DNA from: a virus
Taxonomy: Duplodnaviria > Caudoviricetes
IMG/VR virus record: IMGVR_UViG_3300042914_004341
Location: 1-61,793 of that record
Reading direction: 5' to 3' (one strand)
DNA length: 61,793 nt
Positions 599 to 57,232 of the stretch are shown in pieces (the first letter of the stretch is position 1; each line of letters starts with the position of its first letter). The notes below the pieces were generated by a model. The model searched no databases. It saw only the letters and a list, made by a program, of their open reading frames with translations, and was not told the DNA's origin. Position numbers and translations under genes: made by a program.

Positions 599-655
599 TT
601 GGTAAGGATATACCTACTCCTCCCTGCGGTCGTCGTGTTCCTCCGGAACCTCCTC
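599..655. repeat. Long dispersed repeat copy 1 (palindrome plus hairpin module)
   Basis: TTGGTAAGGATATACCTACTCCTCCCTGCGGTCGTCGTGTTCCTCCGGAACCTCCTC; 55/57 identical to 21236-21292; inverted copy at 57179-57231. Confidence 0.95.
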
Positions 656-1113
656 CACAGCGGGAGCCGCAGGAGGCGAGCCCGGGACGCAGCCCCGCCG
701 TCGGGGCCGACCTCTGCCCGCCCTACAACCAGCCCCACACCCACACCTGCACACCCACAGCCCCCGACCCCCGCCGGCCCGTATGGCCCTGCCCGGATGG
801 CGCACGCCTGGGGCCGGCTTGGCCGGGCTGAATGTGGGCCTCGCGCTCCTTCCCCACGCCCGTCCCCTCCGGGTCCTGGGGCGCGGTCAGTCGCGCTGTG
901 GGTTCCCGTCCGCTGGGCACTCCGAAGGAGGGCCGCAGTCGCGCTGTGCCTGTGTACTGCGAGGCCCCTGCAGCACCGGCCAAAATAGTGCTTGACTTCA
1001 TGGCTGGTCTGTGCCAGCTTGGGCGCACCGCATGCACCCGCGGCCAGCCGGCCAAGGGCCCGCCAACCGGCCTGTCCCAACTCTGCTACTGTCAATCCTG
1101 CCCAATGCAAAAC

Positions 1114-1142
1114 GGGCCCCTGCAACGGGGGCCCACTTTTTT
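1114..1142 (+). terminator. Intrinsic terminator
   Basis: GGGCCCC-loop-GGGGCCC stem followed by ACTTTTTT. Confidence 0.6.
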
Positions 1143-1831
1143 GTCCTTGACTTGTGCGTAGGGCCGTGAGATATTGGAGTCTATCGCTGGGGACATTTGT
1201 GTGTCCGCGCAAGCGCCTTAACCCCGATGGCTGATTAGCAACCAGCCCGCCCGCCGGGGCGCCTGCAAGGATGCGGGGCCCGGCAACCCTCGCTCCGCTT
1301 CGGGCGGGGGAGGTCCCACCGACCCTTTCTTAGAGGCTGAGGGGTAGCGGAGGCCAATGTGCAGGTTCTGGCATGCGTGCGCAGAAGTCCGGCAGTAACC
1401 GTTGAGGCCCCCTCCCGGCGGCCCAACGGGACGCTTGAAGCTACCATAAGGCCGAGCGCACAGCCGCAAGCGATGCCCACTACCGTAGTGGTCACACGGA
1501 AGGAGTGTCTCGCTCCGCAGTTGGGCCGAACCCTTGCCGCTCGTCGTGGTAGATATCGACGAAGAGACGTTGCGCCGAGGACGTAAACCCAGGCACCACT
1601 AGCTGCCCGCCGCGTTTCTGTATAAGAACCCCGGCGGGCTCTTCTTATATCCCTGTCTGGAATATAAAGCAGAAATAAGCTGTTATATGCGCGTGGGGGA
1701 TATTGGGGCGTCGCCGCGGCTTGTCCTATGTGCCAAAACAAAAGGAACCAGCAGCACATGGCCGCTGGCTCCCCCCTGAAGGTGGAAAGTGTTCTTTTTA
1801 CTGGACCCAGTTGCATTTAGGCCCAAACTGT

Positions 1832-1860
1832 TTGACAGCCAAACACGTTCCGAGTACTGT
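1832..1860 (+). promoter_or_regulatory. sigma70-type promoter
   Basis: TTGACA-17 nt-TACTGT upstream of the RBS and ATG at 1906. Confidence 0.6.
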
Positions 1861-1905
1861 TGTAACACGCACCGTTGCATGGTGTCAACTATGAAGGAGC
1901 TTCAA

Positions 1906-2991
1906 ATGGCTGGATTCCTTGAAATCAAAACCCCCGATGGCAACGCCCTCAAGTTCAAAGGTTTCGCAGACTGCGGCGGCGAACTGCAATGGTTCCGCAC
2001 ACGCCTGACGCCCGGCCTCCTCGGCGCCCGCAGCAAAGAGCGGTGCCCCATCGTCGGCACCCTGACCGCCGGCCCCCAACGCCTCATCATCCTGGACCTC
2101 GACCCCAAGTGCGCCGCCGAGGCGGCCTGGGCCGAAGACCTTTGCCTGGCCCTGGCCGAGCGTCACGAGAACTGCCTGGCCTTCCAAAGCGTGTCTGGCA
2201 ACTGGAAGGCCGGGTTCTTGGTGACCACGGACTTCGTGCCGACAAGTGACGCGTGCGAAGCCTACCTTATGAGCATGCTGCCGGAGTCAGCCTGGGAACG
2301 CTTTGACCGCGCGGGCATGACTAGATTGTACCTGAACCAGAGGCTGGCGGACTTCCTCGCGAAGGCCCTCCCCGCGATGCCCGCGCCTTCTCTGCCCGAG
2401 CGCGTGAAGGTGGGGAGTAGGTATATCCTTACCAAACCAACGCAATCATGCACTTACCACATAGCGCAGGACCAATACTTGCCTACAGACGCCCTGCCCG
2501 CCGCTTTTCAGGACGGCCAGCGCAAGGCTCTTTTGAAGGTGCTTACAGCGGCCTGGGGCCTTGCCCAAGATGCGGGCTGGAACTTGCCCATCGAGCAGCT
2601 GGCCTTGAATATTGGCTCATCCCCTAGCCAAGTGTCTCGCATCCTTAAGGAACTCGTTCAAGAGGGCCTCATTGTCTGCATTGACCCCAGCTACCAAAAG
2701 GGCGTCAAAGCCAAAACCTACAAGGCTCGCGGGGCCCTTTTTCTGGCCATCCAACGCCACAAAGCTGACTACCTTCTTTCCGGTAAACCCACGAAATCTG
2801 TAAAGGAACTTCCGAACGCCATCCAGGATGGCCAGTTCCACCAGCTTTGCCTCCAGACCCTCAACCGTTTCCACTCCCAAGAGGCGTTCGCTGTCTATCT
2901 CCAGGGCCTACAGGGCCTGACTCCCAAGCGGCTCAAGGAAGGCATGCGGTACGCAAAATGCCATTTCCACAAACAGGGGCTCGCTGCATGA
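1906..2991 (+). CDS. AEP-family primase-polymerase-like domain fused to a winged-helix domain (putative replication protein)
   Basis: RBS AAGGAG at 1894; LIILDLD (DxD) and QSVSGNWK motifs resemble the BT4734/VirE_N-type AEP domain; IEQLALNIGSSPSQVSRILKELVQEGLI...KAKTY is a wHTH pattern. Confidence 0.6.
   Translation: MAGFLEIKTPDGNALKFKGFADCGGELQWFRTRLTPGLLGARSKERCPIVGTLTAGPQRLIILDLDPKCAAEAAWAEDLCLALAERHENCLAFQSVSGNWKAGFLVTTDFVPTSDACEAYLMSMLPESAWERFDRAGMTRLYLNQRLADFLAKALPAMPAPSLPERVKVGSRYILTKPTQSCTYHIAQDQYLPTDALPAAFQDGQRKALLKVLTAAWGLAQDAGWNLPIEQLALNIGSSPSQVSRILKELVQEGLIVCIDPSYQKGVKAKTYKARGALFLAIQRHKADYLLSGKPTKSVKELPNAIQDGQFHQLCLQTLNRFHSQEAFAVYLQGLQGLTPKRLKEGMRYAKCHFHKQGLAA
2414..2435 (+). repeat. 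Palindromic motif copy inside the prim-pol gene (interdomain linker)
   Basis: GGAGTAGGTATATCCTTACCAA, identical to 6739-6760 and to the reverse complement of 599-620. Confidence 0.9.
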
Positions 2992-3734
2992 ACGCGAAGG
3001 TATGCAGCAAGTGCGGGGTCGAGAAGGACAGGTCGGGGTTCAGTGCGGACAAGGGCAAGCCTGATGGGCTGTATGCACACTGTAAGACCTGCGCAAAGGG
3101 GGCGCACAAGGCTTACCGCGAAGCCAATCACGCCCAGGTGCTTGCGCAAGAGAAGGCCCGCTACGAGGCGAATCGTGCTAAGATGCTTGAGCGACACAAG
3201 GCTTACCGCGAGGCCAATCGGGGCAGGGTGCTTGCTCGCACGAAGGCACGCTACGAGGCCAATCAGGACAAGGAGCGTGCGCGAATGAAGGCACGCTACG
3301 AGGCCAATCGGGATAAGATACTTGCGCAAAAGAAGGCTTACCACGCAGAGTACTGCGCCAAGCACGGTGTAGCCCCCTCAACGGCCCTCCGCCGGCGTGC
3401 CCCCCAAGCCCGTCTCGCAGACATCCTGCGGAGCCGTTTGCGTGACGCCCTTAAGGGCAAATTCAAAACGGGCTCCGCCGTCCAGGACCTCGGTATGCCT
3501 ATTGATGACTTTCTCATGTATCTGAACCTGGGTGCACTAGACAAATACGGCATTCCGTACACCGGTAATGAATCGAAGTTCCACATCGACCACATCCGCC
3601 CCCTGTCTTCGTTTGATTTGGAAGACCCGGAGCAGTTGAGAATTGCGGTAAGATGGGATAACCTTCAAGTGCTCCGCGCTGAAGAAAATTTGAGAAAGGG
3701 AGCCAAGTGTCCAAGCCAATTGACCCAGAGTTGA
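2988..3734 (+). CDS. Free-standing HNH homing-type endonuclease 1
   Basis: N-terminal CSKC...CKTC zinc finger, helical repeats, C-terminal FHIDHIRPLSSF...NLQVL..EENL.K HNH motif; ATG overlaps upstream stop (ATGA). Confidence 0.85.
   Translation: MNAKVCSKCGVEKDRSGFSADKGKPDGLYAHCKTCAKGAHKAYREANHAQVLAQEKARYEANRAKMLERHKAYREANRGRVLARTKARYEANQDKERARMKARYEANRDKILAQKKAYHAEYCAKHGVAPSTALRRRAPQARLADILRSRLRDALKGKFKTGSAVQDLGMPIDDFLMYLNLGALDKYGIPYTGNESKFHIDHIRPLSSFDLEDPEQLRIAVRWDNLQVLRAEENLRKGAKCPSQLTQS
3108..3332 (+). repeat. Five tandem 45-bp (15-aa) repeats within HNH1
   Basis: KAYREANHAQVLAQE/KARYEANRAKMLERH/KAYREANRGRVLART/KARYEANQDKERARM/KARYEANRDKILAQK. Confidence 0.9.
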
Positions 3735-4574: not shown

Positions 4575-4579
4575 CTTCT

Positions 4580-5209: not shown

Positions 5210-5233
5210 TTTCAGATGCTGCCGTGTTAGACT
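5206..5233 (+). promoter_or_regulatory. sigma70-type promoter for TerL
   Basis: TTGATT-16 nt-TAGACT with extended -10 TG. Confidence 0.4.
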
Positions 5234-5266
5234 GCCCCTGTTGTAACCCAACGGGGGCTTTGTTTT

Positions 5267-6733: not shown

Positions 6734-6738
6734 TGGGT

Positions 6739-6760
6739 GGAGTAGGTATATCCTTACCAA
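6739..6760 (+). repeat. Palindromic motif copy between terL and the next gene
   Basis: GGAGTAGGTATATCCTTACCAA. Confidence 0.9.
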
Positions 6761-6786
6761 TGCTTTAACAACAAGGAGTTAGACCA

Positions 6787-9090: not shown

Positions 9091-9094
9091 CGGC

Positions 9095-11831: not shown

Positions 11832-12509
11832 ATGCAAAAGATTTGCGGCGGATGTAATCAAGCTTTGCTATTGGAAGCCTTTTCTAAAAACAGCAAACGT
11901 GAAGATGGTTTGCAAACCCAATGTAAAATTTGCATGAGGTCCAAAGCTTTAAAATGGTATCAAGAAAACAAACAACAAGCCGCAAAAGTGGGAAAAATAT
12001 GGAGAGAAAAAAACGCGGACAGAAAAAGGTCCGCAAATAAAGAATGGCTAGTTAAAAACAAGGAACGTAAACAGGAAATAAATAAAGTGTGGAGAGGACA
12101 AAATAAAGAGCGAGTTCGAGAGATATCTCGCTTGTATTATCAAAATAACAAAACCATTATTAATGCAAGAAAGCAAAAAAGAAAAACGCAAGATACAAAG
12201 TACTATTTATCTGAGCTACTCCGTGACCGATTGAAAAAGGCCCTCAAGGGTAAATACAAAACGGGCTCAGCCGTCCGTGACCTGGGTATGCCCATTGACG
12301 CTTTCCTCGTGTACCTGAACCTGGATGCCCTAGACAAATATGGCATCCCATACACCGGCAATGAAAGTAGGTTCCACATTGACCATGTACGCCCCCTTGC
12401 CAGCTTCAACCTCGAAGATGCGGAGCAACTCAAGCAGGCGGTGCATTGGTCAAACCTACAAATTCTGCGAGCCGAGGAGAATCTTGCCAAGGGGGCACGC
12501 ACCCCCTAA
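11832..12509 (+). CDS. Free-standing HNH homing-type endonuclease 2
   Basis: CGGC...CKIC zinc finger; FHIDHVRPLASF...NLQIL..EENL.K; C-terminal domain closely paralogous to HNH1. Confidence 0.88.
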   Translation: MQKICGGCNQALLLEAFSKNSKREDGLQTQCKICMRSKALKWYQENKQQAAKVGKIWREKNADRKRSANKEWLVKNKERKQEINKVWRGQNKERVREISRLYYQNNKTIINARKQKRKTQDTKYYLSELLRDRLKKALKGKYKTGSAVRDLGMPIDAFLVYLNLDALDKYGIPYTGNESRFHIDHVRPLASFNLEDAEQLKQAVHWSNLQILRAEENLAKGARTP

Positions 12510-13967: not shown

Positions 13968-15923
13968 ATGGGAAGACGAGTTACGCCCAATCTGGGCTTG
14001 GTAAAAGAAGCCGGCATCACCCGCACGGCCTCGGACAACCTTGACCGCCTGGACCTTCTGGGCGGGACCACAAATCTACTGAACGATGAGAGCGTGCAGT
14101 TCCGGGCCGTGCAGGACATCATACTGCAGCCCGCGGATGCCTCCATAGGGGGAACCCCTGGGCAGGGCAACTTCAGCATCGGCTCGGCGGACAACAAGGC
14201 CCTGACTTGGAAAGCCTACTCCGTGGGCCCCGCGCTGTTCTATGCCCCCTCGGTGGGCGTGCAGGACCCAAGCTCGGGCTACTTTGCCAAGCTGACCTAC
14301 GCTCCCGCTTCGGCGCCCTCCGCGGACAGGAACTTCCAGCTGGACCTAGCGAACGGCAACCGCACGCTGACCCTCCAGCGGGACCTCTCGGTGCTTGCCG
14401 GCATCGCCGGGGCTACGGGGGTAGGTATATCCCTACCAAGTGAAGGATTCACCACACTTACAGCCCCAGCCACAGGCACCCTTGTCCTAACCACACTGGC
14501 CCAGACCCTGACCAGTAAGTCCCTGGACGCGTACCAGAACACCATCACCAATCTGGCCAATGCCAACATCAAGGCCGCCGCTGCCATCGACGCCTCCAAG
14601 ATTGCCGACGGCTCGGTGTCCAGCACCGAGTTCCAGTACCTCAATGGCGTCACCTCCTCCATCCAGGCCCAGCTCGACTCCAAGCAGGCTACTGGGGCCT
14701 ACATCACGGCCCTTTCCGGGGACGTCGTGGCAGCAGGCCCTGGCTCCGCGGCTGCGACTATCCAGGCTAACGCCATCACCACGGCAAAGATTCTGGATGG
14801 GGCCGTCACCTATGCCAAGGTCAACCTTGCTGGCAGCATCCAAGGCTCTGACATTGCAGCTTTGGCAGGGATAGCCTACTCCAAGCTCACGCTCACAGGC
14901 TCGGTCGTTAACGCAGACGTCTCCGCCTCCGCCGCCATCGCCGGGACCAAGGTCAGCCCGGACTTCGGAAGCCAGGTTGTACAAACCTCGGCATCCTTCC
15001 GCGTCACCAACGGGGCCTTCTATGTAGGCTTTCAGGCGCCGAGCCTTTCGGCCTCGCAGCTCTGGACCCTGCCTCCCGCGGACGGCACAGTAGGCCAGGT
15101 CCTAACCACCGACGGCGCTGGTGTGCTCACCTGGTCTACAGTTACAGGTACAGGCACGGTCACATCCGTGGCCCTCTCGCTGCCGGCCATCTTCTCTGTC
15201 TCGGGAAGCCCTGTCACCACCTCTGGCACGCTTTCTGCCACCCTGGCGACCCAGGTGGCAAACAGAGTCTGGGCCGGCCCTTCGACCGGCGCCGACGCGG
15301 CCCCCACATTCCGGGCGCTGGTCTCTGATGACCTGCCTTCGTCTATTCCGCTGTCCAAACTGGCAGCACTCACCACAGCCCGCGCCCTGGTATCCGATGG
15401 CTCCGGATTTGTCTCAGCCTCAGCCACCACGGCCACTGAGGTCGGGTACCTCTCGGGCGTGACCTCCGCCATCCAGACCCAGCTCAATAGTAAGCAACCG
15501 ACAGGCAACTACATCACGGCACTCACAGGTGATATCTCCGCGGCCGGCCCCGGCTCCGCGGCTGCTACCATCCAGTCCACGGCCATCACAGGCCAGACCC
15601 TGGTGTCCGCCGCCGCGGCCGACCAGCTTCTCATCTCTGATGCCTCGGATGCCGGCCTCCTCAAGCGGGCCACGGTGGCCACCATCACCGCAACCCTGGC
15701 CACCACAGCCAAAGCCACCTGGGCGACGGTGGACGGTACCAGCAAGGTTGTGGCGCACGGCCTAGGCACCACGGATGTCCTGGTGCAGATATTTGACATC
15801 GCTACCGGGGAATCCATCTTCGTGGACCAAGTGGTGCGTACGGATGCCAACACAGTCACGCTCACCGCATCCGAGGCCCCGCCCGCGGGCTCCTGGCGTG
15901 TGCTTATCCTGGCCCTGGCGTGA
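13968..15923 (+). CDS. Fibre protein (tail or head fibre)
   Basis: A/T/S/G-rich; QTLT.K, AITTAKI.DGAVT, GQVLTTDG.G.L.W fibre motifs; internal duplication. Confidence 0.8.
   Translation: MGRRVTPNLGLVKEAGITRTASDNLDRLDLLGGTTNLLNDESVQFRAVQDIILQPADASIGGTPGQGNFSIGSADNKALTWKAYSVGPALFYAPSVGVQDPSSGYFAKLTYAPASAPSADRNFQLDLANGNRTLTLQRDLSVLAGIAGATGVGISLPSEGFTTLTAPATGTLVLTTLAQTLTSKSLDAYQNTITNLANANIKAAAAIDASKIADGSVSSTEFQYLNGVTSSIQAQLDSKQATGAYITALSGDVVAAGPGSAAATIQANAITTAKILDGAVTYAKVNLAGSIQGSDIAALAGIAYSKLTLTGSVVNADVSASAAIAGTKVSPDFGSQVVQTSASFRVTNGAFYVGFQAPSLSASQLWTLPPADGTVGQVLTTDGAGVLTWSTVTGTGTVTSVALSLPAIFSVSGSPVTTSGTLSATLATQVANRVWAGPSTGADAAPTFRALVSDDLPSSIPLSKLAALTTARALVSDGSGFVSASATTATEVGYLSGVTSAIQTQLNSKQPTGNYITALTGDISAAGPGSAAATIQSTAITGQTLVSAAAADQLLISDASDAGLLKRATVATITATLATTAKATWATVDGTSKVVAHGLGTTDVLVQIFDIATGESIFVDQVVRTDANTVTLTASEAPPAGSWRVLILALA
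14418..14439 (+). repeat. Palindromic motif copy inside the fibre gene
   Basis: GGGGTAGGTATATCCCTACCAA (perfect GGTAGG/CCTACC arms). Confidence 0.8.
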
Positions 15924-21211: not shown

Positions 21212-21235
21212 GGCTAAGCCCCCAGCTTTGTTAGT

Positions 21236-21292
21236 TTGGTAAGGATACCCCTACTCCTCCCTGCGGTCGTCGTGTTCCTCCGGAACCTCCTC
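21236..21292. repeat. Long dispersed repeat copy 2
   Basis: 55/57 identical to 599-655; intergenic, upstream of the large tail gene. Confidence 0.95.
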
Positions 21293-31156: not shown

Positions 31157-31171
31157 TAGCCCACCCCCGCA

Positions 31172-31247
31172 GGCCCATGGTAGGATGCCCGAGGATGGGG
31201 GGTAGGTATATCCTTACCAAACTAGTTAAACCAAGCACTTAAGGCCA
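31172..31247 (+). repeat. ~75-bp direct repeat A (extended -10 plus palindrome)
   Basis: GGCCCATGGTAGGATGCC...GGGGTAGGTATATCCTTACCAAACTAGTTAAACCAAGCACTTAAGGCCA; near-identical to 32686-32760. Confidence 0.92.
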
Positions 31248-31263
31248 ACCAGGAGCGCACACA

Positions 31264-32658
31264 ATGGCAACCAAACCGGCAGGCAAAAAGAAACTCCTCA
31301 AGGGCATCGGCGCCGCGGCAGGCGTGGGCGGCCTGGGCTACGCCCTCCTGGGCGGGGACTCCAAGCCCGAGGAAATGCCCCCGGCGGAACAATCCCTGGC
31401 CCCGGAGGCTGGAGGCGCGGGCACGGTGCCCACCTCCAAGGAAAGCCAGTCCAGGTCCGCCACGACCCAGACAACCACCACATCCACGGGCTACACGCCC
31501 AAGGACATCAAAGCCCCCCAGCTGCCGGCCCTCCAGGAGCTTGGCATCGTGGAACCCCGCGACCTCGAAGAAAGGCAGAAGGAGCTGGCGGCCGCCCGAC
31601 GCACGCCCGAGGAGAAAGCCCTCTTCAAGAACCAGATGAAACTTCTGGACTCGGAAATCAAACAACTCAATGAGACCTACGCAGCCCGCCGTGCGGAGGC
31701 CAAGGATGCATCCGAGGCGGAGGCCCTCCGCGCACGCTGGGCAGGCGTGGCAGAAGCCCTGGCCAATGCGGCCATCACCATCGCCGCGGCCCAGCAGGGC
31801 CTGGCCCGTGGTCAGAACATCGTGGGTGGCGTGACCCTCACACGCTCAGACTGGCAGCAGGCCGTGGATGCCGCCCTGTCCCGCGGGCAGAAAGAACGCC
31901 AGCTCCTGTCAGGCGAGCAGCAGGACCTCACGGGCGTCCTGGAGCGCAAGCAGGCACAGCTGGAGCGCGAGGAGTCCCGTGAGTTCGGGGCCGAAGAACA
32001 ACGGGCGCGGGACGTCACGCAGGCCCAGCAGCAGGAGCTTACGGACGTGCGCCGGGAGAACCTGCGCCGCGAGGCCGCCAAGCCTGAACAGGAAGCCTCC
32101 AGGGCCAAGACCCAGGCGCAGCTTGAACTGGAGGCCGCCAGGGCCACGGAGCAGGCCCGTGCAGGTGCCGCACCCCGCACTTCAACCACAACAACCGTCA
32201 CAGAACGGAGCGGCGAAGAAGAAGGCATCGCAGCGGCGGGAACCCGTGCAGCAGCCTCCGAAAGGGCCCGCAAGGAGAAGGCTTACAGCAACCTGGAAGG
32301 CGCCGTCGAGGGCCTGAAGGCCAAGGATAATGACCTCAACAGACAGGAGGTAAGGAAGTACGCCGCGGAGCTTGGCGTCCCGGCGGCCAAGATTGACCAG
32401 CTCATGGACGAGACCACGGGCGAGGGCTTGTGGAACCTGGCAGAGGGCTCCAAGGTGCGGGCCATCCTGGATGCCTACAATCCACGGCGGGCCGCCGCGG
32501 CGGCCGCCGCCCCCGGAGGCCAGCCTGCACAGGCCCCGGCACCCGTAGCCCCCGCGCAGGTGAAAGTCCGCCGCAAGGGGACAGACCTCATAGTGCCCAT
32601 GACCCCAGAGCGGGCCAAGGTGGTGCTGAGCAATCCAGCTTACGAGGAGGTGCCCTAA
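31264..32658 (+). CDS. Putative internal virion protein
   Basis: RBS AGGAG; N-terminal Gly/Ala hydrophobic helix, long coiled coil. Confidence 0.6.
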   Translation: MATKPAGKKKLLKGIGAAAGVGGLGYALLGGDSKPEEMPPAEQSLAPEAGGAGTVPTSKESQSRSATTQTTTTSTGYTPKDIKAPQLPALQELGIVEPRDLEERQKELAAARRTPEEKALFKNQMKLLDSEIKQLNETYAARRAEAKDASEAEALRARWAGVAEALANAAITIAAAQQGLARGQNIVGGVTLTRSDWQQAVDAALSRGQKERQLLSGEQQDLTGVLERKQAQLEREESREFGAEEQRARDVTQAQQQELTDVRRENLRREAAKPEQEASRAKTQAQLELEAARATEQARAGAAPRTSTTTTVTERSGEEEGIAAAGTRAAASERARKEKAYSNLEGAVEGLKAKDNDLNRQEVRKYAAELGVPAAKIDQLMDETTGEGLWNLAEGSKVRAILDAYNPRRAAAAAAAPGGQPAQAPAPVAPAQVKVRRKGTDLIVPMTPERAKVVLSNPAYEEVP

Positions 32659-32685: not shown

Positions 32686-32760
32686 GGCCCATGCTAGGAT
32701 GCCAGGAGGTAGGGGTAGGTATATCCTTACCAAACTAGTTAAACCAAGCACTTGAGGCCA
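32686..32760 (+). repeat. ~75-bp direct repeat B
   Basis: GGCCCATGCTAGGATGCC...GGGGTAGGTATATCCTTACCAAACTAGTTAAACCAAGCACTTGAGGCCA. Confidence 0.92.
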
Positions 32761-36799: not shown

Positions 36800-36976
36800 T
36801 CACTTTTGTGCTCGCTGAAAGTAAACCTGGAACTTCCCGCAATCCGGGCATCGCCGCCACATCGCCCGGTCCTTTTCCCTGTGCGCCTGGGCGCGGGCCG
36901 CCGCGGCCGATGCCTCCGCGGCGGACTCGTACGGTGTGTGACTGCACTTCTTTGGGCCTTTTGGGCGTGCGCTCAT
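36800..36976 (-). CDS. Small zinc-binding hypothetical protein (58 aa)
   Basis: Not in the track; MSARPKGPKKCSHTPYESAAEA...RCPDCGKFQVYF; GGGAG RBS adjoining the upstream hairpin module. Confidence 0.65.
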   Translation of the reverse strand: MSARPKGPKKCSHTPYESAAEASAAAARAQAHREKDRAMWRRCPDCGKFQVYFQRAQK

Positions 36977-36985
36977 AGTTACTCC

Positions 36986-37016
36986 CTCGCTCCGCTCGGT
37001 CGCGTTCCTTCGGAAC
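36986..37016 (-). repeat. Hairpin module
   Basis: Minus strand GTTCC-GAA-GGAAC then CGA-GC-GGA-GC-GAG. Confidence 0.8.
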
Positions 37017-37027
37017 CTCCCACACCA

Positions 37028-42407: not shown

Positions 42408-43022
42408 TCATACCTTCCAGCCCTCCTTCTTCATGCTCTGCACCAGAATCAGTGCCGACGTCACAACGTGGTGGATGTGGGCCTGCCCGCTTTCAGCGTC
42501 AAGCAAGAGTCCCGCAGAGCCATCCTTGTCATCCGCTTCCACGGCGGCCTGTACTGCGGCCACATGGCGCATCAGGGAGTGCAGTGCCTCGACCGGCGGA
42601 AATCCCTTCCGGTAGTTCCCGGGGCTGTACTTACCTGCGCCGTACTCCATCACAGCGGCGGCGCCCTCTACGAGGTCCAGCGGAAAGTAGCCAAGCGGTG
42701 CTTTGCCTACGGAGTTACGCTTGGCTCCCGTGGGGCTAACGTACTCGGCTGGGGTCTGAGCAGCGCGGGTTACAGTGGGTGCTTCTGCTGGTTTTTTTAG
42801 TATTTGTACGATATCATCCGCATACTCCCCGTGAACGATGAAATTCCCATCGTTGGTAAACCACTTGCCGAAAGGGCTCCTGGTCGGGTCCCATAAAGCT
42901 ATTACTCTGTAAGGGTATGTGCTTGGTGATGGGGCGAGTTCAACTCCAAGAACCTCAACAATTCGCCCGTTCCGCAAAACGACACTATCACCGGCTTCCA
43001 GCGTGCTCAAATCAACTGTCAT
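42408..43022 (-). CDS. dATP/dGTP diphosphohydrolase-like (DUF5664-type) domain with an N-terminal SH3-like module
   Basis: K.PLGYFP...VMEYGAGKY..GNYRKG...SLMRH...DAESG..HIHH. Confidence 0.8.
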   Translation of the reverse strand: MTVDLSTLEAGDSVVLRNGRIVEVLGVELAPSPSTYPYRVIALWDPTRSPFGKWFTNDGNFIVHGEYADDIVQILKKPAEAPTVTRAAQTPAEYVSPTGAKRNSVGKAPLGYFPLDLVEGAAAVMEYGAGKYSPGNYRKGFPPVEALHSLMRHVAAVQAAVEADDKDGSAGLLLDAESGQAHIHHVVTSALILVQSMKKEGWKV

Positions 43023-43276
43023 CTTACAGCTCCTTCACCTTTGGCGTATACAATATCTATGACATCTACATCGTTTTCCGCGCCCGCGAAAAACAATCCA
43101 TCTTTCGTGTACTCGTAGCCGCGGCCAGTTTCGACAAACACCAGTTTGATGGCCTGGCTTTTTTCTCGCACTACCTTTGCGAGTTTTGCAGGCTTGACGT
43201 GCTTTACTGTATTCACAGACAAGTCCCTAAGAATCACTATGTCCCCAGGTTGTACCGAAAGAAGGTTGACCGTCAC
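43019..43276 (-). CDS. Small SH3/KOW-like paralog-family protein
   Basis: MTVNLLSVQPGDIVILRD...YTKDG...DVIDI, similar to the N-terminus of 42408-43022. Confidence 0.6.
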   Translation of the reverse strand: MTVNLLSVQPGDIVILRDLSVNTVKHVKPAKLAKVVREKSQAIKLVFVETGRGYEYTKDGLFFAGAENDVDVIDIVYAKGEGAVR

Positions 43277-46200
43277 AGCTTTACTCCTAGTTCATCAATG
43301 GACGGGGATTCGGTCTTGTCCTCCGCCCAGCATTTCACAAAGTTTGCTTCCCATTTCAGGCGTACGACTCCGCCCAGCAGTGCGTTTACCTTGTCCGGGA
43401 CCACCTTGTCCACAACTTCCCGCACCTCGTCCACGTCCCGCTCGTCAATCTCCAGGGCGGTACAGTCATGGATGTCATAGTTCCAGGGCTGGTACACTAT
43501 CCCGCGCTTGCTCAACTCCTCGGCAAGCACCTTGGTAAACAGTAGGAAGATGTCGTGCCCACCACTCTGGCAATCTACGTTGCACAGGTCCTTGAGCTTG
43601 CGCTCATCTGCGCACACCGGCCGCCCGATGGGGTTCAGCCACCAGCCCCCGTTGCGTTCCCACTGCGCCTTAAGCCACTTCTCATACTTCTTGACCTGCG
43701 CGAATAAGCCCCAGTACGCGGAGTGCAGCCGCTTTGCCTCTCCAAGACTGACCTCGATGCCCTGCCCTGAGAGTCCCATACGAATCTTGCCGGGCCCCGC
43801 TGAGTACCCGGCACTCAGGTGCAACAGCTTAGCAATATTACGTTCTTTCTTTGCCTCCTTCTTGGCCTTGGCAACGGCTTCGGCTGTGGGGTTTCTGGGG
43901 TCAAAGCCTGTTGCCCGAATCTTCGCCCCCAGTTCCCCGCCCAGGTTCGCTGCCACGGCCAGATAGATGCAGTTGGGTTTAGCATCCGGTCCATAAATTG
44001 ACATGTAAGTAGGGTCCTGGCTGCGTTGGGCCAATGTAGTAGGCTCAAGGGCACAATTACCGGAGACAAATGTTTGCCCTTTGCTACGTACCAGCACAAA
44101 CCCAGTCGAGACTGTCACACATCCTACCTTCCCCTGGAAATGCTCCCTTTTGTAATCATAAGTTGGACGAAGCCTTATACTAGATTTTCTGGTAATACGT
44201 ACACGGTAGAATAACTTCCCAGAACCAAGCAAACTAGGCTCTTCCCATTTTAAAGAAATGCCACACCTTGCCAAATACACAGACACTTCATCCGCGGATT
44301 TCTTATCAGTGGTACCCCAGACAATTGCATTTTTATCTGTTGACCCATCCCAAAAATGCAATGCTGCTAGAAATTCATCGCACTGATTAGAGCCTAATGT
44401 ACTTAAATCCAAAGACTTACCGTCTAATAGAGCACTCCTAAATTGAGAGATATACCAAGATTGGGTATCAAAATTCTGACCAGGACGAGCTTTTGTACTT
44501 CTGGAGCTGTCCCCGAATAACTCTTTGAGTCTTGTTATTTTACGAGGCTTACCAACTTCTATTCGATAGCAGGCTTTAGTGCCTTGGTACAGACTGCCAT
44601 CCGCCTGCAATGCACAAACTTTCCATATTTCCTCTGCAGTGTAATGGGAGTAACTTTCTTCGTGTGCTACACATAGCATATCTTGCGTACCCTTGGGTAC
44701 GCCGTCTTCTGCTCTTGTGACTTTTCTTAATCCCATTTTGCGTGGCACTGTTTGCTGCCCTGCCCACAGCATTCTATGCCCATCCGTTACAGAAAGAGTA
44801 CCCCTTCTATTTCCGAAAGTATGTAAAGTGCCATCGTAATCTTTCCATATTACACGCTGTGGGTGTTCCCATTGTAGCTTCTTGGAAATGGGATTTACAG
44901 CCGCCACTAAATCATCCTGTGTCACATGCTCAAATGTTTTCCATCCGGCTTTTGTCAAAATCTCTGTCCAAGGCGCAAAGCACACATCTGCAAACATCAG
45001 CACCTTTCCCTCCGGCGCCCTGAATATTTCCAGGTACTCCTTGCGCTTTGCCACGTTCTGCCAGTTGAATCCCCCGCTCCCCGACAACCGTCCTGTCTGC
45101 GTCCCGGGGACACGCAGTTCAGGGTGGTAACGACCCTCGCTGTCCAGCTTTTCCTGGAGGCTCTCGATTGTGGAGCGCAACTTCTCCACCGTGGCGTAGG
45201 TCATGAGCACCTTGCCTGCTTCGCCCCAGCCCTTCATGGCCTCCTCGTCTGTGCCCGGTTGAGGCTCCGAGTTTGGGTTGTCCGGTTCCGTCCAGACAAG
45301 GACCTCAAGGCCCATGCGGTCATAAAACAGCTGCCGTTTCTGCTCCGAGGAACGCAGGTTGAAATGACGCGCGGCCTTCGCCCGCTGGAGCTTCTCATGC
45401 CAGCCCGTCCAGTGGCTGGACTGGAACTCGACCGCGGTCCCTACGGCCTGCCCATCGTCCCGGGCCTCGGATGCCTGGATGTCCGCCAAGAGCTGCCGCG
45501 CCCTGGCCTGCTTCTCGTGCCAGGCCAGCCAGGACTTTGACACAGCCCCCGACTTGGTATACTGTGGAGGCACCCCCCCACCATCACCTGGCAGTTTCTT
45601 CCAGCGCGATGGTTCCCTATTGGCAATTTCCTGCACAACCTCGGCCTCCATGGCCTGGACGTGCGCGGCCACGTCCAGGTGCGCACGGAACTCGTCCTCA
45701 AGCTCCGCCAGCCGGGCCTCCAGGGCCGCCCGCAGGGTCTCCGCCCGGCCCGTGTCGATTGCCACGCCGCGCAGTTTCTGCCACACAAGATGGCGCTGAT
45801 TCCCATGCTCGCCGTGCATCCAATCCTGATGCATCTCGCGGTAAGCCCCGAAGGTATCCCACACCGGACGCAGGACCTTGTCCCACAGCAGCCAAGTTGA
45901 CTCGGCGTCAAGGGCAGCGTAGCGGCCAAGGATGGCTGCCGGTGCCCGCCACATCTCTGCCTTGTTGGGCTTGGGCACCAGGGCCTTGCTGCCGTCTGGC
46001 TGCTTCTTATTCGCCCACTCGCCCCAGCCGTTGTTGCAGAGCCACTCGTCAAGCTCCTTCTCATTGGACTCAGGCCATCCAAGCAGGTCCTTCTGTAAGA
46101 ACTTAAGACCATGCTGCTGCCCGATGAAGCTCTCCGAGGCAAAGTGTTTTGCCATGGCCAGCGTGCAGCCAAACCAGTTGTGCCACACCACGCCCGTATC

Positions 46201-46605
46201 CCAGAACTTCGCAGCCACGGGCACGCCCGGTGCAATGCCCCACACTGTCAGGGTCAGGTCGCGGGACAACCACGCCGCATCGAATGCCACGTTATGAGCC
46301 AACAGCGGTGTGTACTCCTCCAGCCACAACCTAAGCAGGTGGCGCCAACGCAACTGGCCTTCCAGGCTCGTGCCGATGTGCACGGCCAGGGAACCCGACG
46401 CATCGGCCACCGAGAACATGACCACGAGTCGCGTGCAGTCCCACACCTGCGTGCCCTGGGTCTCAAGGTCCAGCACCAGGACGCCGCCCTCGGGGCGGCA
46501 CAGCTGGGCCATTGCGGCCTCGTCCAGGTCCATGATGTCCAGCACGGGGAAATCCGCGGCGCGTGGTGGGTGCTGGCCCGGCTGAAGTAGTGCGTAATTT
46601 CCCAT
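43273..46605 (-). CDS. polA: Family A DNA polymerase with 3'-5' exonuclease, intein-containing
   Basis: Exo LDLET, HNVAFD, YAALDA; TGRLSGS..NWQN; motif A ADV^CALE; motif B RNIAKLLHLSAGY; motif C IHD; RBS AGGAG before ATG 46605. Confidence 0.93.
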   Translation of the reverse strand: MGNYALLQPGQHPPRAADFPVLDIMDLDEAAMAQLCRPEGGVLVLDLETQGTQVWDCTRLVVMFSVADASGSLAVHIGTSLEGQLRWRHLLRLWLEEYTPLLAHNVAFDAAWLSRDLTLTVWGIAPGVPVAAKFWDTGVVWHNWFGCTLAMAKHFASESFIGQQHGLKFLQKDLLGWPESNEKELDEWLCNNGWGEWANKKQPDGSKALVPKPNKAEMWRAPAAILGRYAALDAESTWLLWDKVLRPVWDTFGAYREMHQDWMHGEHGNQRHLVWQKLRGVAIDTGRAETLRAALEARLAELEDEFRAHLDVAAHVQAMEAEVVQEIANREPSRWKKLPGDGGGVPPQYTKSGAVSKSWLAWHEKQARARQLLADIQASEARDDGQAVGTAVEFQSSHWTGWHEKLQRAKAARHFNLRSSEQKRQLFYDRMGLEVLVWTEPDNPNSEPQPGTDEEAMKGWGEAGKVLMTYATVEKLRSTIESLQEKLDSEGRYHPELRVPGTQTGRLSGSGGFNWQNVAKRKEYLEIFRAPEGKVLMFADVCFAPWTEILTKAGWKTFEHVTQDDLVAAVNPISKKLQWEHPQRVIWKDYDGTLHTFGNRRGTLSVTDGHRMLWAGQQTVPRKMGLRKVTRAEDGVPKGTQDMLCVAHEESYSHYTAEEIWKVCALQADGSLYQGTKACYRIEVGKPRKITRLKELFGDSSRSTKARPGQNFDTQSWYISQFRSALLDGKSLDLSTLGSNQCDEFLAALHFWDGSTDKNAIVWGTTDKKSADEVSVYLARCGISLKWEEPSLLGSGKLFYRVRITRKSSIRLRPTYDYKREHFQGKVGCVTVSTGFVLVRSKGQTFVSGNCALEPTTLAQRSQDPTYMSIYGPDAKPNCIYLAVAANLGGELGAKIRATGFDPRNPTAEAVAKAKKEAKKERNIAKLLHLSAGYSAGPGKIRMGLSGQGIEVSLGEAKRLHSAYWGLFAQVKKYEKWLKAQWERNGGWWLNPIGRPVCADERKLKDLCNVDCQSGGHDIFLLFTKVLAEELSKRGIVYQPWNYDIHDCTALEIDERDVDEVREVVDKVVPDKVNALLGGVVRLKWEANFVKCWAEDKTESPSIDELGVKL
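44056..44982 (-). mobile_element. Intein (309 aa) with LAGLIDADG-type endonuclease domain in PolA motif A
   Basis: Starts CFAPWTEILT, block B VTDGHRM, ALQADGS and ALHFWDGS helices, ends VGCVTVSTGFVLVR...VSGN followed by Cys; AT-rich island. Confidence 0.93.
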
Positions 46606-49937: not shown

Positions 49938-50092
49938 TCAATCACCACCCTTTCTTCGACTGCATACCACTGCGGTTCGTCAGGTTCTGTGTATGCCGCC
50001 GCCATATTTTCAGCCTGTTCTCTGTTCGCGTATACGCCCATGAGATAGAGCGGCTCGTACTGCTCGTGACACCAAACAAGGTAGACTTTCAC
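49934..50092 (-). CDS. Small phage protein (52 aa)
   Basis: Not in the track; MKVYLV...GVYANREQAE...; RBS GGAGG; GTGA overlaps at both ends. Confidence 0.65.
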   Translation of the reverse strand: MKVYLVWCHEQYEPLYLMGVYANREQAENMAAAYTEPDEPQWYAVEERVVIE

Positions 50093-50439
50093 CCCTCCTC
50101 CCTTTCCGTGCCCGGCACCATCACAGAGCCTTCGGGTTGGCTGCCTACTCTGTGGGTTTCTTTGAAGTACCTATTAGTGCTAGACGGCCTGACCCACCAG
50201 CCGATAGATGCCGCCCATTCCGGCGTCCCATCCGGCACAAGATAATCGGCTACGCGCTTGGGTTCCTGGACAATTTCCCAGTCGTCAGTTATCAAAAGGT
50301 AACCGCCGAATGTGACTCTGCGGCCTGTAGATAGCCATGCATCCCCACCGACAAAAGATACCCACTTAGCAGAGTCCCACGCTACGCGCCTTACCTTTTT
50401 GCCTTCGCGCAACGCTGGTAAAACTTCCTCGAATTTCAT
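50089..50439 (-). CDS. Tad2/DUF2829-like protein with a C-terminal extension
   Basis: MKFEEVLPALREGKKVRRVAW...LLITDDWEIV matches the family pattern. Confidence 0.7.
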   Translation of the reverse strand: MKFEEVLPALREGKKVRRVAWDSAKWVSFVGGDAWLSTGRRVTFGGYLLITDDWEIVQEPKRVADYLVPDGTPEWAASIGWWVRPSSTNRYFKETHRVGSQPEGSVMVPGTEREEG

Positions 50440-50657: not shown

Positions 50658-50660
50658 GGC

Positions 50661-51032
50661 TTACTCCTCCTTCCGGCCCGCCGATGCCGCTGTGCTGAAC
50701 CCGTCAGGGTATCGTGCTGCCAGCTTGTCCCGAAGCACGCCCACGACTTCGGGCAGCGTCGTGTCCAGGGCCATGGCCGCGAGCTGTACATAATAAAGCA
50801 CGTCGCCGAGTTCTTTGATGGCCTTGTCCCTATCAAACACGCGCCCTTGCTCGTACGTCTTCTTGACCAAGTCCACAAACTCGCCGGCTTCGCCGGCCAG
50901 TCCCAGGGCACTGGACATGCGCATGCGCTCGCGGTCCGCCTCCAGGGGCCCATTCACGAGTGTGGAGTGGGTGCGGAGGACGACATCATGCAACTCGTAC
51001 AGTGCTGTGGAGAGGGGTAGTGCTGCTGTCAT
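50661..51032 (-). CDS. MazG-like nucleotide pyrophosphohydrolase
   Basis: LGLAGEAGE..D.VKK...KELGDVLYY...KL.ARYPDGF. Confidence 0.9.
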   Translation of the reverse strand: MTAALPLSTALYELHDVVLRTHSTLVNGPLEADRERMRMSSALGLAGEAGEFVDLVKKTYEQGRVFDRDKAIKELGDVLYYVQLAAMALDTTLPEVVGVLRDKLAARYPDGFSTAASAGRKEE

Positions 51033-52267: not shown

Positions 52268-52339
52268 TTGGTTCCCTAAAATAGAAGGGCACGCCTAGCT
52301 AGCGTGCCCCGTGGGGGTTATGTACTGTCCCGCAAGGGC

Positions 52340-52783: not shown

Positions 52784-52864
52784 TCGGAGGCTCCTTGTTT
52801 GGGGTACGCCCATGCTGGACGCACCAGTGATGTAACTCGTGTCGGTGTGCGAAGTCAAGCGGGA

Positions 52865-53974: not shown

Positions 53975-54260
53975 TGCCCTGTTCCCTTTTGCGTTTGCGG
54001 TACTCCCGCATGTGTTCGTTACACTTGTCCCTGTTGGCAGTCCACCACGCCCGCTTGTTCGCTAGGCGTTCCTCGTCCCTGCCATCCACAAAGCGGGCCT
54101 GCTTTTGCCTGGCTGCCTCGCAAGTCTTGCAACGCGGCTTGCGCCCGTTGCACCCTTGTTGTTGCACGTGGAAGGCTTCCCAGGGCAGGTAACCCTGGCA
54201 ACCTTTGCACACTCTGCCCCAGGGGTCATCTTTTATCTGCAAGGATTGTTTCCTCCGCAA
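53871..54260 (-). CDS. Zinc-finger/helical protein resembling an HNH endonuclease N-terminus without a nuclease domain
   Basis: VCKGC...AF...G....CKTC plus WWTANRDK.NE.MREYR, as in the HNH1-3 N-termini. Confidence 0.6.
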   Translation of the reverse strand: MRRKQSLQIKDDPWGRVCKGCQGYLPWEAFHVQQQGCNGRKPRCKTCEAARQKQARFVDGRDEERLANKRAWWTANRDKCNEHMREYRKRKREQGNANRREGAPTGGGPAGKGGEGRQGSGESGSAARG

Positions 54261-54876
54261 TTTGCATCACCGTGGGCAGGGCCCGGCGGAGTACATCCCG
54301 CACGGCCTCTGCTACCAGTCTGTGTTCAAGCTGTGTACCATTGCCCAGACGTGTCTGGAGGTAGTGCAGCCAACTCCGGACCGAGCCGGTCATGTACAGC
54401 CTAGACTGGACCATGCCTTCTGGGAGCACTGCCCGGGCACACTCCTTGGCAATCCCCTTGCGTAGTGCCTCCCTGTAAGTGTTCATGGCAGCGTCGTATG
54501 CCCGCATCTGGGCCATGCTGAACCAGTCCTGGGTGTCCTTCGGCATGTCTGCCACGCTGTTTTGTCTGTTCTTGGTGTCCTGTCTGCGGGCCTGGACCTT
54601 GATGGGCTCATCCCTAACTTGTTCGTAACGCTGGCTGAACTCCGAGAAAGTAAAGCTACGGTGCCTAAGCAGCTGCCTCGCGATGGCCCTCGAAGTCTCA
54701 ATTTCGAGGGTGGCATAGCCGTGCTCAAACACGGACCAGTGGCCATGCTTTAAACAGTAGGTGAGCAGCTTCTTAAACTCGGGGTTGGTTTGGTTGGGAC
54801 TGGAAACGCGTGCCACGTAGGCCATGGTCTTTTCTGCATCGGGCGTAATGGCAATCAGGGTCGCCTTCGGTTCCAT
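54226..54876 (-). CDS. thyX: Flavin-dependent thymidylate synthase
   Basis: HWSVFEH, RHRSFTFSEFSQRY, KECARAVLP, TQLEHR motifs. Confidence 0.96.
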   Translation of the reverse strand: MEPKATLIAITPDAEKTMAYVARVSSPNQTNPEFKKLLTYCLKHGHWSVFEHGYATLEIETSRAIARQLLRHRSFTFSEFSQRYEQVRDEPIKVQARRQDTKNRQNSVADMPKDTQDWFSMAQMRAYDAAMNTYREALRKGIAKECARAVLPEGMVQSRLYMTGSVRSWLHYLQTRLGNGTQLEHRLVAEAVRDVLRRALPTVMQIAEETILADKR

Positions 54877-54885
54877 CGGGCCTCC

Positions 54886-55260: not shown

Positions 55261-55317
55261 GGTGGAAACTCCCTTCGAGTTCGCACCATAGCACGCGTCG
55301 GCCCTGCCTGTCTCGGG

Positions 55318-55944
55318 CTATTTCCCATTGAAGTCAAAGTCCTTGGGCAGGAAAGACTTGCGGGTCTGGGTCAGCGTGACCCTGCCTACCGTGGCGGGAA
55401 AAAGTGTGGTGAACTTGTCCCCTGTGAAGCGGGTTTCCTCGAACATGTGGAGGACCTCACAAGAGGGCTTCGGGAGTTGGGCCCACTTTGTACGCAACGG
55501 GACGCAGGACGTAGGCTGCATGGGCCCCAAGCCCTGTCGCACATCTGCCGCCATGTCCTCTGAAGTCTGCATGGCCCGCTGCGTTAGTTGGTAAAAGTCC
55601 GCCCCAGAAAACAGCATGTCCGCAGGGAGCCTTGCGGCAGCCGAGTGAAAAATGAACTCACTGTCCCGGGCCACTACGATGCGGTGGCACCCAGGGAGCA
55701 CAGACTGCAAGGCCGCGGAGTATGCCCTCGAAACCATACACGTAGCCTGGACGTTCTGGAGGGCCTGCCCAATAAGCCTGCCGAGGTCGATAACACCGCC
55801 CCGAGAGTGTACCACGGCGACGACGTGCACGCGTTCGCCCGCCCGTTTGGCGGCCTCGGCCTGGGCCAATGCGAGCAGGAATTCTTGCAGGCCGGGGGCC
55901 CCCGGTTCAATAGCCATGGTCAGGTGGAGAAGAAAGAACTTCAT
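55318..55944 (-). CDS. ClpP-like serine protease homologue
   Basis: VHSRGGVI, AYSAA (catalytic Ser), FIFH motifs. Confidence 0.65.
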   Translation of the reverse strand: MKFFLLHLTMAIEPGAPGLQEFLLALAQAEAAKRAGERVHVVAVVHSRGGVIDLGRLIGQALQNVQATCMVSRAYSAALQSVLPGCHRIVVARDSEFIFHSAAARLPADMLFSGADFYQLTQRAMQTSEDMAADVRQGLGPMQPTSCVPLRTKWAQLPKPSCEVLHMFEETRFTGDKFTTLFPATVGRVTLTQTRKSFLPKDFDFNGK

Positions 55945-55946
55945 AC

Positions 55947-56318
55947 TTAGCACCTCTCTAGTTTGGGAAGGGAGGACCACGGTCTGGCCTTGCTTCCGGT
56001 TAAAGCCTCAAACGCGCCGGGCGTCAAGTCCAAACCACGCTTGCCATGGTAGCGTGGGTTTCCCTTGTCATTGACCCATATGGCCACACAAGGGCCCTCG
56101 CCCGCCCTAAGGAAAAGCCAGTGCGGCCTGACCCTATACCGCGCGGGCATAAACACCGCCGCCGTGGGCCGGCGCGGGTCAAACGTCTCGCCCGATGCAG
56201 TCTGTGCACCATACGCACACGGGCGCGGCGCGTGGGTGTCCCCACACGCCACCTCGCCCAGGCCGTACACAGAAGCGGGCAGTGTGATGGCCTGCGCGGC
56301 AAAGATGAAAAAGCCCAT
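55947..56318 (-). CDS. RlpA-like double-psi beta-barrel protein
   Basis: TASGETFDP...TAA, VNDKG, LDLTPGAFEAL. Confidence 0.82.
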   Translation of the reverse strand: MGFFIFAAQAITLPASVYGLGEVACGDTHAPRPCAYGAQTASGETFDPRRPTAAVFMPARYRVRPHWLFLRAGEGPCVAIWVNDKGNPRYHGKRGLDLTPGAFEALTGSKARPWSSLPKLERC

Positions 56319-56410
56319 AAGGTTCCTCCAGAAATGGGCGCGCACAACCGGGCACACAAACACGGAACCCTCTACTGAGCGGCCCCGCGGCCGGTGCCTG
56401 CGTGCTTTGC

Positions 56411-57232
56411 TTAGTTTCTAGGTACAACGTACAGCGTGGCCGTAATGGCCGTGCCGCCCGCCTGCAACGTGCTGTCGAGCCCGCCGCCTGCCACACTCAC
56501 GGTCACGTTTGCCTCCTGCGCCAAGACAACATCACCCAGCACGGGGACCAGGGAACCAAGGTCGCAAGCGTACATACCAACACGGGCACCTTTGAGGGTG
56601 AACCCCGTACCGGGCATTGTGGCGTTGTCCCCGTTGCCTTGGTAGCAGTAGCGAACCGAACCAAGCTGGATGTATGCCCACCCCGTTCCCGCCGCGCCCG
56701 ATGCTAACGGGAGGGTCTGCGGCAACGTCCACAGCCCGGCCACGGCGGGGCCAACGTAGCTGTCCCAGTACGACGGGCCGTAGGTGCGGGATGCCGCGAG
56801 CACGAGTGTCTGAGGCGCACCCCAAGGTGCGGCTCCGTCCTGTCCGTCCACTCCGTCCTGCCCTGCCGGGCCCGCTACCCCGGGCAACCCCTGCGGACCA
56901 GCTGGGCCGGCCTCGCCTGTCGCGCCCGTCTCGCCGGGCACGCCCGTTGACCCTGGCAACCCTTGCGGGCCCGCTTCCCCTGCCTGCCCGTCCTTGCCGA
57001 GCTGTCCCGGTGAGCCATCTGTCCCAGGCACACCCTGCGGGCCGGGTGTTCCCCGGGGGCCGGCCACACCGGGCCGGCCGTCCTTGCCGTCGCTGCCGTC
57101 GTCGGGGTCCGCGGCGTCACGCAGGAATCCGCACCCGCCAGCGGCCAGCGTGAGCAAAGAGAAAGTTACGAAGCGGGTGAGGTTCCGGAGGAACACGACG
57201 ACCGCAGGGAGGAGTAGGTGTATCCTTACCAT
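56411..57232 (-). CDS. Collagen-like lipoprotein
   Basis: RBS AGGAG; lipobox-like LAAGGC; about 30 Gly-X-Y triplets; C-terminal beta domain. Confidence 0.8.
57179..57231. repeat. Long dispersed repeat copy 3 (inverted), in frame after the ATG of the collagen-like gene
   Basis: Reverse complement is 52/53 identical to 600-652. Confidence 0.95.

Follow-up and report, generated by a model that had tools for sequence, protein, structure and literature searches.

Eight dispersed bipartite sites in a freshwater phage genome, possible recognition sites of a primase-polymerase-like protein

The virus record IMGVR_UViG_3300042914_004341 (Duplodnaviria; Caudoviricetes), which originates from freshwater metagenomes and is rated 100% complete and linear, was analyzed over its whole length of 61,793 bp (the window). 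Our subject is a short imperfect palindrome that recurs eight times in this genome, and gene g2, whose product is a candidate for the protein that binds it. A purpose-written codon-usage script called 79 genes, arranged in two arms. The plus-strand arm (genes at 67-36470) codes for a P22/SU10-type portal (g9), an SU10-type adaptor, a holin and very large virion proteins, and the minus-strand arm (genes from 36463 to ~61000) for a family A DNA polymerase, a helicase, ThyX and MazG. Neither megablast of 25 kb nor tblastn with the portal as query, against 50,697 phage records, turned up a close named phage. Phages of 57-61 kb form a large group defined by this portal.

An earlier note on this DNA, made from the sequence alone, had described eight copies of the palindrome, and their number and places held. 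The 19-mer GTAGGTATATCCTTACCAA has exactly eight matches at up to three mismatches, all of them with two at most, and none in any of 100 dinucleotide-preserving shuffles (the coordinates first given for the copies add a 3-nt G-rich flank). With a position weight matrix (PWM) built on them, the eight sites score 35-40 bits and the rest of the window less than 8 bits; since nothing falls between 8 and 35 bits, the family is clearly delimited and has no weaker members. Each site is made up, in this order, of a G-rich 5' flank (GGRG), the 19-mer, a 17-nt spacer and a [C/G]TT[A/G] box. The arms of the 19-mer, GTAGG and CCTTAC, enclose a variable center (TA, GG or TG in the window). The distal box lies exactly 17 nt past the 19-mer in all eight copies, as [C/G]TTA in seven of them and as CTTG in site 7; it often reads CTTAC, a repeat of the right arm, and is kept at sites 3, 4 and 8 despite their dissimilar spacers. 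The spacers have an A+T content of 59%, versus 40% in the genome and 29% in the upstream flank, a value that was reached once when eight 17-mers were drawn at random 20,000 times, although two of the spacers are identical and intergenic DNA is generally somewhat richer in A+T. Sites 1 and 2 form a 44-nt inverted repeat and have CAATCAT in common at an equal offset, as had been noticed before. Coordinates are collected in Table 1.

Table 1. Coordinates of the bipartite sites, the associated module, the proposed binder and a group of genes of the minus-strand arm
Feature	Position	Strand	19-mer	Remarks
Bipartite site 1	578..620	-	599-617 (-)	box CTTA at 578-581; antisense to plus-strand neighbors; fused to module
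Bipartite site 2	2414..2456	+	2417-2435 (+)	in g2, encodes disordered interdomain linker, residues ~170-184; kept in close orthologues
Bipartite site 3	6739..6781	+	6742-6760 (+)	between g7 and ORF 6787; box GTTA overlaps AAGGAG Shine-Dalgarno-like sequence
Bipartite site 4	14418..14460	+	14421-14439 (+, 1 mismatch)	in g15 (virion structural protein); identical copy in G001
Bipartite site 5	21215..21257	-	21236-21254 (-, 2 mismatches)	g23/g24 gap; antisense, fused to module; same place in G001 with other module variant
Bipartite site 6	31199..31241	+	31202-31220 (+)	15 nt past TGGTAGGAT (31178-31186); g28 start 43 nt downstream
Bipartite site 7	32712..32754	+	32715-32733 (+)	14 nt past TGCTAGGAT (32692-32700); g29 start 32 nt downstream; box CTTG
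Bipartite site 8	57211..57253	+	57214-57232 (+, 2 mismatches)	antisense in minus-strand arm; reverse complement gives g65 ATG and first codons; box GTTA covers g66 stop
Module type A	618..655	-		5' of site 1
Module type A	21255..21292	-		5' of site 5
Module type A	57176..57213	+		5' of site 8
Module type B (G001 variant)	36980..37023	-		without 19-mer; directly before Shine-Dalgarno-like sequence and ATG at 36976 (-)
g2, proposed binder	1906..2991	+		361 aa; AEP prim-pol-like 1-169, linker 169-180, winged helix ~190-293, C-terminal helical part
Nucleotide-metabolism and Tad2-like set	42408-43022, 50661-51032, 54226-54876, 50089-50439	- (all)

The exact 19-mer was found four times in 596 Gb of prokaryote genomes, which is about the chance level, and in one unrelated metagenome contig, so that the idea of a repeat of host origin was rejected. 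A degenerate version of the motif gave at least 111 stretches in viral contigs, mostly singletons, and several occurred only in the contig of a close relative (G001) among the matches listed. Assembled contigs from 24 runs break at the repeats. At up to three mismatches the window 19-mer is absent from five complete relative genomes. However distant the phage G003 is (51% GC; portal 46-47% identical), a k-mer count revealed in it four copies of GGAGTAGGACTATCCTTAACA, with AC at the center and, in three of the four, the distal box at the matching distance from CCTTA. The conservation of core and layout across such a large evolutionary distance argues for a function. Three of the G003 sites are sense and one antisense, and three of the four lie inside genes; taking window and G003 together, 4 of the 12 sites are antisense and 5 are in genes.

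Gene and motif also go together. Both are present, the latter in dispersed copies, in the two complete g2-bearing genomes (G000 and G003), and neither is found in five complete relatives (G004-G007 and G014) or in four partial ones; G018 has a single match with two mismatches, which is the rate of the reversed control. The genes shared with G003 and missing from the motif-less genomes are only g2, g14, g34 (weakly) and part of g28, among which g2 codes for the only protein with a DNA-binding domain. The HNH genes of the window have no homologue in G003, and their products are therefore not the binder, as G003 does have sites. Other repeats are seen in relatives that lack g2: G005 has four copies of TGACGTAGCTAA (346, 11527, 24423 and 32001, all on the plus strand) and G006 five of CATCCCCCCCTA (13101, 32198, 45637, 53139 and 57744). 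These dispersed 12-mers may be analogous site systems of other proteins.

The copy inside g2 was found in all close g2 orthologues examined, first at 8 of 8 loci and then at 2 of 2 more (10/10, including near-duplicates, which reduce to six distinct sequence variants), and in G003, whose g2 orthologue is 40% identical, one of the four copies sits at the same residue position. We aligned the codons of the window gene with those of the six variants and compared them in windows of eight codons. Those starting at residues 169-170 have a third-position identity of 1.00, the highest peak in g2 (mean over the gene, 0.37; sd, 0.17), with an amino acid identity of 0.50. Moreover, the residue preceding a conserved Tyr varies (Thr, or Pro in one variant) and CTTAC remains unchanged. 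A peak at third positions where only half of the residues are conserved, with CTTAC kept in spite of the Thr/Pro change, indicates selection on the DNA and not on the protein. The residues encoded here overlap the sole segment of g2 (169-180) with a predicted local distance difference test score (pLDDT) of <50, i.e., the putative recognition DNA lies within the coding sequence of the candidate initiator, between its two domains. In G013, which has a g2-family member with 25% identity, 140 bp of linker-coding DNA are repeated at 94% identity. This direct repeat (L261; 3026-3165 and 4550-4689) contains TATCCTTA, and one copy codes for the linker and the other is located in a divergent intergenic region upstream of the gene. 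It is a hint that linker-embedded cis DNA is general across the g2 family.

A profile search recovered 238 g2-family clusters at 50% identity, 56 of which were used for alignment and modeling. A first model from 6 sequences was discarded (mean pLDDT, 50.9), and the AlphaFold2 model from the 56 members reached a mean pLDDT of 92.7. With VIA-align, residues 1-169 match the archaeo-eukaryotic primase (AEP) proteins Prim-PolC (6sa0, Z 6.9 over 154 residues), an archaeal nonhomologous end-joining polymerase (5dmu, Z 6.6), CRISPR-associated Prim-Pol (CAPP; 7nqd, Z 6.4) and LigD-pol (2fao, Z 6.4), values that are mid-range and, being below 8, can also reflect a common arrangement, which is a first caution about the reading developed below. 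The AEP alignments span 145-154 of the 169 residues and are the sole N-domain matches among the best 50 listed. Foldseek gave no match to the AEP fold at an E value of ≤0.001. Residues K44, D64, D66 and D134 are invariant in the 56 members, and the three aspartates fit the acidic motifs of AEPs (DxD of motif I and Asp of motif III). Residues 190-293 match winged helices of the MarR/Crp type. In a PHROGs scan of the 56 members, 14 of the 18 member-family matches were to replication initiation, O-like and DnaD-like families. From the model, g2 appears to be a prim-pol-like AEP domain followed by a MarR-like winged helix. The earlier note had named the winged helix of the prim-pol gene as the best candidate binder, and the fold, the in-gene copy kept throughout and the co-occurrence of gene and motif all speak for it indirectly; three independent lines of comparative evidence thereby favor g2 as the candidate.

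We tentatively propose, at slightly less than even confidence, that the eight sites are cis recognition sites of g2, that g2 is a protein of the replication-initiator type and that the sites are origin-like; the binding is a prediction from sequence comparison. The winged helix of g2 would read the 19-bp imperfect palindrome as duplex DNA, the AT-rich spacer of 17 bp beside it would open, and the [C/G]TTA box, as a repeat of the CTTAC arm, might be a third contact or, speculatively, the start of synthesis. Recognition of the duplex is favored because the single strand folds no better than shuffled sequence: the folds of 10 sites have z values from -1.66 to +1.01 (9 of the 10 above -1), with no stable hairpin. 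The copy in the linker-coding DNA of g2 would be the ancestral, conserved origin-like site, and the remaining ones lineage-specific and individually dispensable additions that recruit the initiator/primase to further places in the genome. Winged helices located C-terminally to AEP primases of mobile elements have been predicted to recognize origins, according to passages of PMC5862659.

Several observations weigh against this proposal. The sequence profiles do not see the N-domain: no Pfam AEP family was matched at an E value of ≤1 in 6 members or of ≤0.01 in the 56, and PDB sequence profiles gave no significant match to this domain (ORF904, E 0.9). No recognizable primase was found in G004 or G005, which lack g2. 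Since the g2-less relatives, these two among them, evidently replicate, g2 need not be the replicative primase. Five g2-bearing fragments of the G003 type (9.5-17.6 kb) show just the in-gene copy, and no more than 4 sites occur in the G003 lineage. An iteron cluster, as in classical origins, is missing: g2 contains a single site, and the PWM scan found no weaker neighbors around it. The 17-bp spacer, with its 59% A+T, is AT-rich like an unwinding tract but much shorter than a classical one. A stretch of 24.5 kb of the minus-strand (early) arm is devoid of sites. Six sites are on the plus strand and two on the minus, a bias that is not significant. Individual sites seem to be dispensable, given that an HNH gene replaces one of them in G001 (see below). 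Finally, sites 6 and 7 stand where operators typically do.

Our own gene calls confirmed that five sites (1, 3, 5, 6 and 7) are intergenic and three within genes (site 2 in g2, site 4 in g15 and site 8 across the start of g65), as first described. Sites 6 and 7 do start just 3' of TGnTAGGAT elements, those of g28 and g29. Sites 2, 3, 4, 6 and 7 are sense to the surrounding genes, and sites 1, 5 and 8, precisely the three that bear a module, are antisense. The plus-strand gaps contain seven extended -10 elements (TGnTAnnnT at 5225, 6874, 10297, 15936, 21345, 31178 and 32692), with no obvious -35, which are likely to be middle or late promoters of the phage. A serious rival, though a less probable one, is that the sites are operators at which g2, through its winged helix, or a different regulator of the phage represses or blocks transcription, including that of g2 itself through the in-gene site, with the prim-pol-like domain being irrelevant. 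The distances of 15 and 14 nt from the extended -10s of g28 and g29, the location of several sites in short intergenic gaps and the MarR/Crp-like character of the DNA-binding domain would fit, as would the dispersed repressor sites that stop elongation in Cluster A mycobacteriophages (PMC9283540). However, only two of the seven extended -10s are followed by a site, and in G001 a 37-bp module parts the g28 promoter from its site. The orientation is mixed (five sense and three antisense in the window, three and one in G003), three of the four G003 sites and two of the window ones are deep within genes, a simple operator has no use for an AT-rich spacer and a fixed distal box, and the PHROG matches of the g2 family are mostly to replication initiators.

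A role at the RNA level (a 5'-leader hairpin, a processing site or a translational switch), or one as promoters of an unrecognized phage sigma factor or RNA polymerase, appears improbable. Sites 3, 6 and 7 are indeed in leaders, 26-43 nt ahead of start codons, a Shine-Dalgarno-like AAGGAG lies next to the distal box both at site 3 and at G003 site 51526, and two boxes with 17 nt in between resemble a -35/-10 arrangement. Against this, the antisense sites (3 of 8 in the window and 1 of 4 in G003) and the five in genes do not conform to a sense, upstream location. RNA folds are weak as well, like those of single-stranded DNA, with a 5-bp stem with a bulge as their sole common structure; Rfam and tRNA scans gave no matches, and among the 79 window proteins neither a sigma factor nor an RNA polymerase was detected.

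Three of the copies (sites 1, 5 and 8) are fused to what had been called a hairpin module, forming units of 53-62 nt that are 94-98% alike. G001, a contig of 31.8 kb that is 83-96% identical over long aligned stretches and spans window positions 4963-36267, helped us to separate the two parts. It retains the sites at the g15, g24, g28 and g29 loci. Where g7 and g8 meet, the 19-mer and spacer of site 3 have given way to an HNH endonuclease gene of ~590 bp, and the distal box is kept. At the g28 locus, the 37-bp module located between promoter and site is absent in the window, where the locus is otherwise kept, and at the g24 locus the module is a different variant with a length difference of 2 nt. 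As its presence and variant differ between the two genomes, the module (~35 bp) is a separate repeat, exchanged among copies. The variants are uniform per genome, with type A on the three window sites and type B on both G001 sites. We rejected a coding role of the module-plus-motif unit: each of the three opens an ORF, but the 2-nt indel at g24 shifts the frame, and thus no reading frame is conserved there. The translations of two of the three units look like off-frame junk, and only g65 plausibly begins in one. This gene (56411-57232, minus strand) codes for a collagen-repeat protein whose ATG and first ~19 codons are the reverse complement of site 8 and its module; the start is behind a good Shine-Dalgarno sequence, and a lipobox-like LAAGGC is found at residues 29-34.

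The earlier note had considered a miniature mobile element, and these exchanges bear on that alternative: the sites would be its copies or footprints, perhaps tied to the homing-endonuclease traffic of this lineage and with no function of their own. We give it little probability. It gains from the variable presence in genomes that are 92-96% identical (the g28 module and the HNH gene in place of site 3), from the homogenization of module variants per genome and from HNH gene g1 ending 29 nt ahead of site 1. What it leaves unexplained is the in-gene copy, fixed in the 10 close g2 orthologues with perfect third positions, as well as a core conserved between phages with such distant portals and the scarcity of the exact 19-mer in prokaryote genomes. 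No transposase was found among the window proteins, and the single indel inspected (the module in the window versus G001) showed no target-site duplication, in a check that was not exhaustive; G001 was the only close relative available for this comparison. HNH/endonuclease VII-like genes are found at 67-570, 2988-3734 and 11934-12509 of the window and at 28779-29456 and ~30874-31594 of G001, and their presence differs between the two. The extra HNH genes of G001 are located between g6 and g7 and between g7 and g8, and the DNA beside the insertion is more diverged, as expected from homing endonuclease traffic.

Very unlikely, in our opinion, is that the sites serve for specific nicking, packaging or termination on the DNA. 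Their dispersal over both strands, the several HNH endonucleases encoded and a peak of the cumulative GC skew inside site 1 could be seen in this light, but G003 has sites and no homologue of the window HNH genes, its skew is different, and there are eight sites, whereas a headful pac site is normally single. As targets of HNH endonucleases the sites were rejected, since the window phage and G001 would cut themselves and G003 lacks such a homologue. The packaging role that the earlier note had left open, with a small terminase as binder, is unlikely: relatives that retain the portal neighbors g4, g6 and g7 lack g2, and the small terminase/pac site explanation was discarded. Regarding the skew itself, its cumulative extremes are at 607 (peak) and 60987, with a near-steady fall between them across both arms, and at third positions the plus strand has the same sign in genes of both strands, i.e., a strand effect independent of transcription. 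This is suggestive in the window, but G003 shows a transcription-coupled pattern and not that of the window, and we set GC skew aside as evidence of an origin. The 1.3 kb from 571 to 1905, immediately upstream of g2 and bracketed by the inverted pair of sites 1 and 2, have no credible ORF (the translations all resemble off-frame junk) and a GC content of up to 77% at 650-950. It may belong to a replication or control region.

If the sites are indeed recognized by g2, one could think of a distributed origin system, in which the winged helix guides a self-contained primase-polymerase to about eight oriented bipartite loci, each with a palindrome, an AT-rich zone for melting and a start box, one of them in its own linker-coding DNA. 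We consider this extension doubtful. It would imply replication or re-priming from programmed places, and not from a single origin or from short primase triplets met at random, and reuse of linker-coding DNA as a cis site across the 238 clusters of the g2 family. Were the recognition by g2 correct, a fairly large and uncharacterized phage family of AEP-plus-winged-helix proteins would be paired with a defined DNA target, for which a 45-bp oligonucleotide suffices as a direct biochemical test, and one phage genome would have several programmed initiator sites. The design of an origin in the initiator gene would then extend from lambdoid phages to primase-type initiators, and a peak of third-codon conservation would be a simple computational signature of cis sites hidden in the replication genes of uncultured phages.

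Some other features of the genome should be mentioned. The family A DNA polymerase (43273-46605, minus strand) has 1110 aa, versus 742-771 aa in G004 and G005, and Pfam covers only part of its polymerase domain; it probably carries a large insertion. Genes for a dATP/dGTP diphosphohydrolase-like domain, MazG and ThyX are grouped, which hints at an altered nucleotide metabolism, and a protein with a Tad2-like (Thoeris anti-defense) domain is also present (Table 1). A direct repeat of 81 nt (60711-60791 and 60966-61046; 79% identical), each copy closed by a T-run, precedes two small early genes, in or beside a divergent control region. Lastly, there is a perfect 36-bp tandem duplication (29252-29323) at the 3' end of g25.

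Among known systems, the stoperators of Cluster A mycobacteriophages hold a single orientation relative to transcription. They resemble the sites described here in being many, asymmetric, bound by a protein and largely located in short intergenic gaps (PMC9283540). In contrast, they are sites of the immunity repressor of temperate phages; here both orientations occur, neither an integrase nor a repressor was detected among the window proteins, and the candidate binder is the primase-like g2. In linear plasmid-prophages of the N15 type, the origin lies within repA, which codes for a primase-type replication protein of several domains, the same arrangement as proposed for g2. Their protein carries a helicase as well, there is just one origin site, and these phages are not related to that of the window.

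In RepB' of plasmid RSF1010, an AEP-type catalytic domain bears three catalytic aspartates and is tethered to a second domain (PMC8567376), a plan like that proposed for g2. Its sites, ssiA and ssiB, are also long asymmetric signals with a palindromic part, with a start at a fixed distance in RSF1010; they are two copies on opposite strands, both needed by RepB', which resembles the inverted pair formed by sites 1 and 2 (PMC8567376). The stable hairpin of single-stranded DNA used by RSF1010 has no counterpart in our folds. Moreover, the distal element is only a few nucleotides from the palindrome in ssiA versus 20 nt here, the second domain is a helix bundle in RepB' and a winged helix in g2, and there are two sites versus eight (PMC8567376).

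Lambdoid phages offer a parallel in the layout of the DNA. Their ori is within the O gene, with the recognition DNA in the middle of the initiator gene, in the part that joins its domains, and an AT-rich tract adjoining (passages of PMC7466680). Some members of the g2 family match the "replication initiation O-like" families of PHROGs. The differences are that the lambdoid ori has four to six adjacent iterons, versus one bipartite site in g2 and seven dispersed single sites, and that lambda O recruits the host helicase loader, whereas g2 carries a prim-pol-like AEP domain instead. If the sites are origin-like, as seems most likely, they would be a new variant of this "origin inside the initiator gene" design, with extra copies dispersed over the genome.

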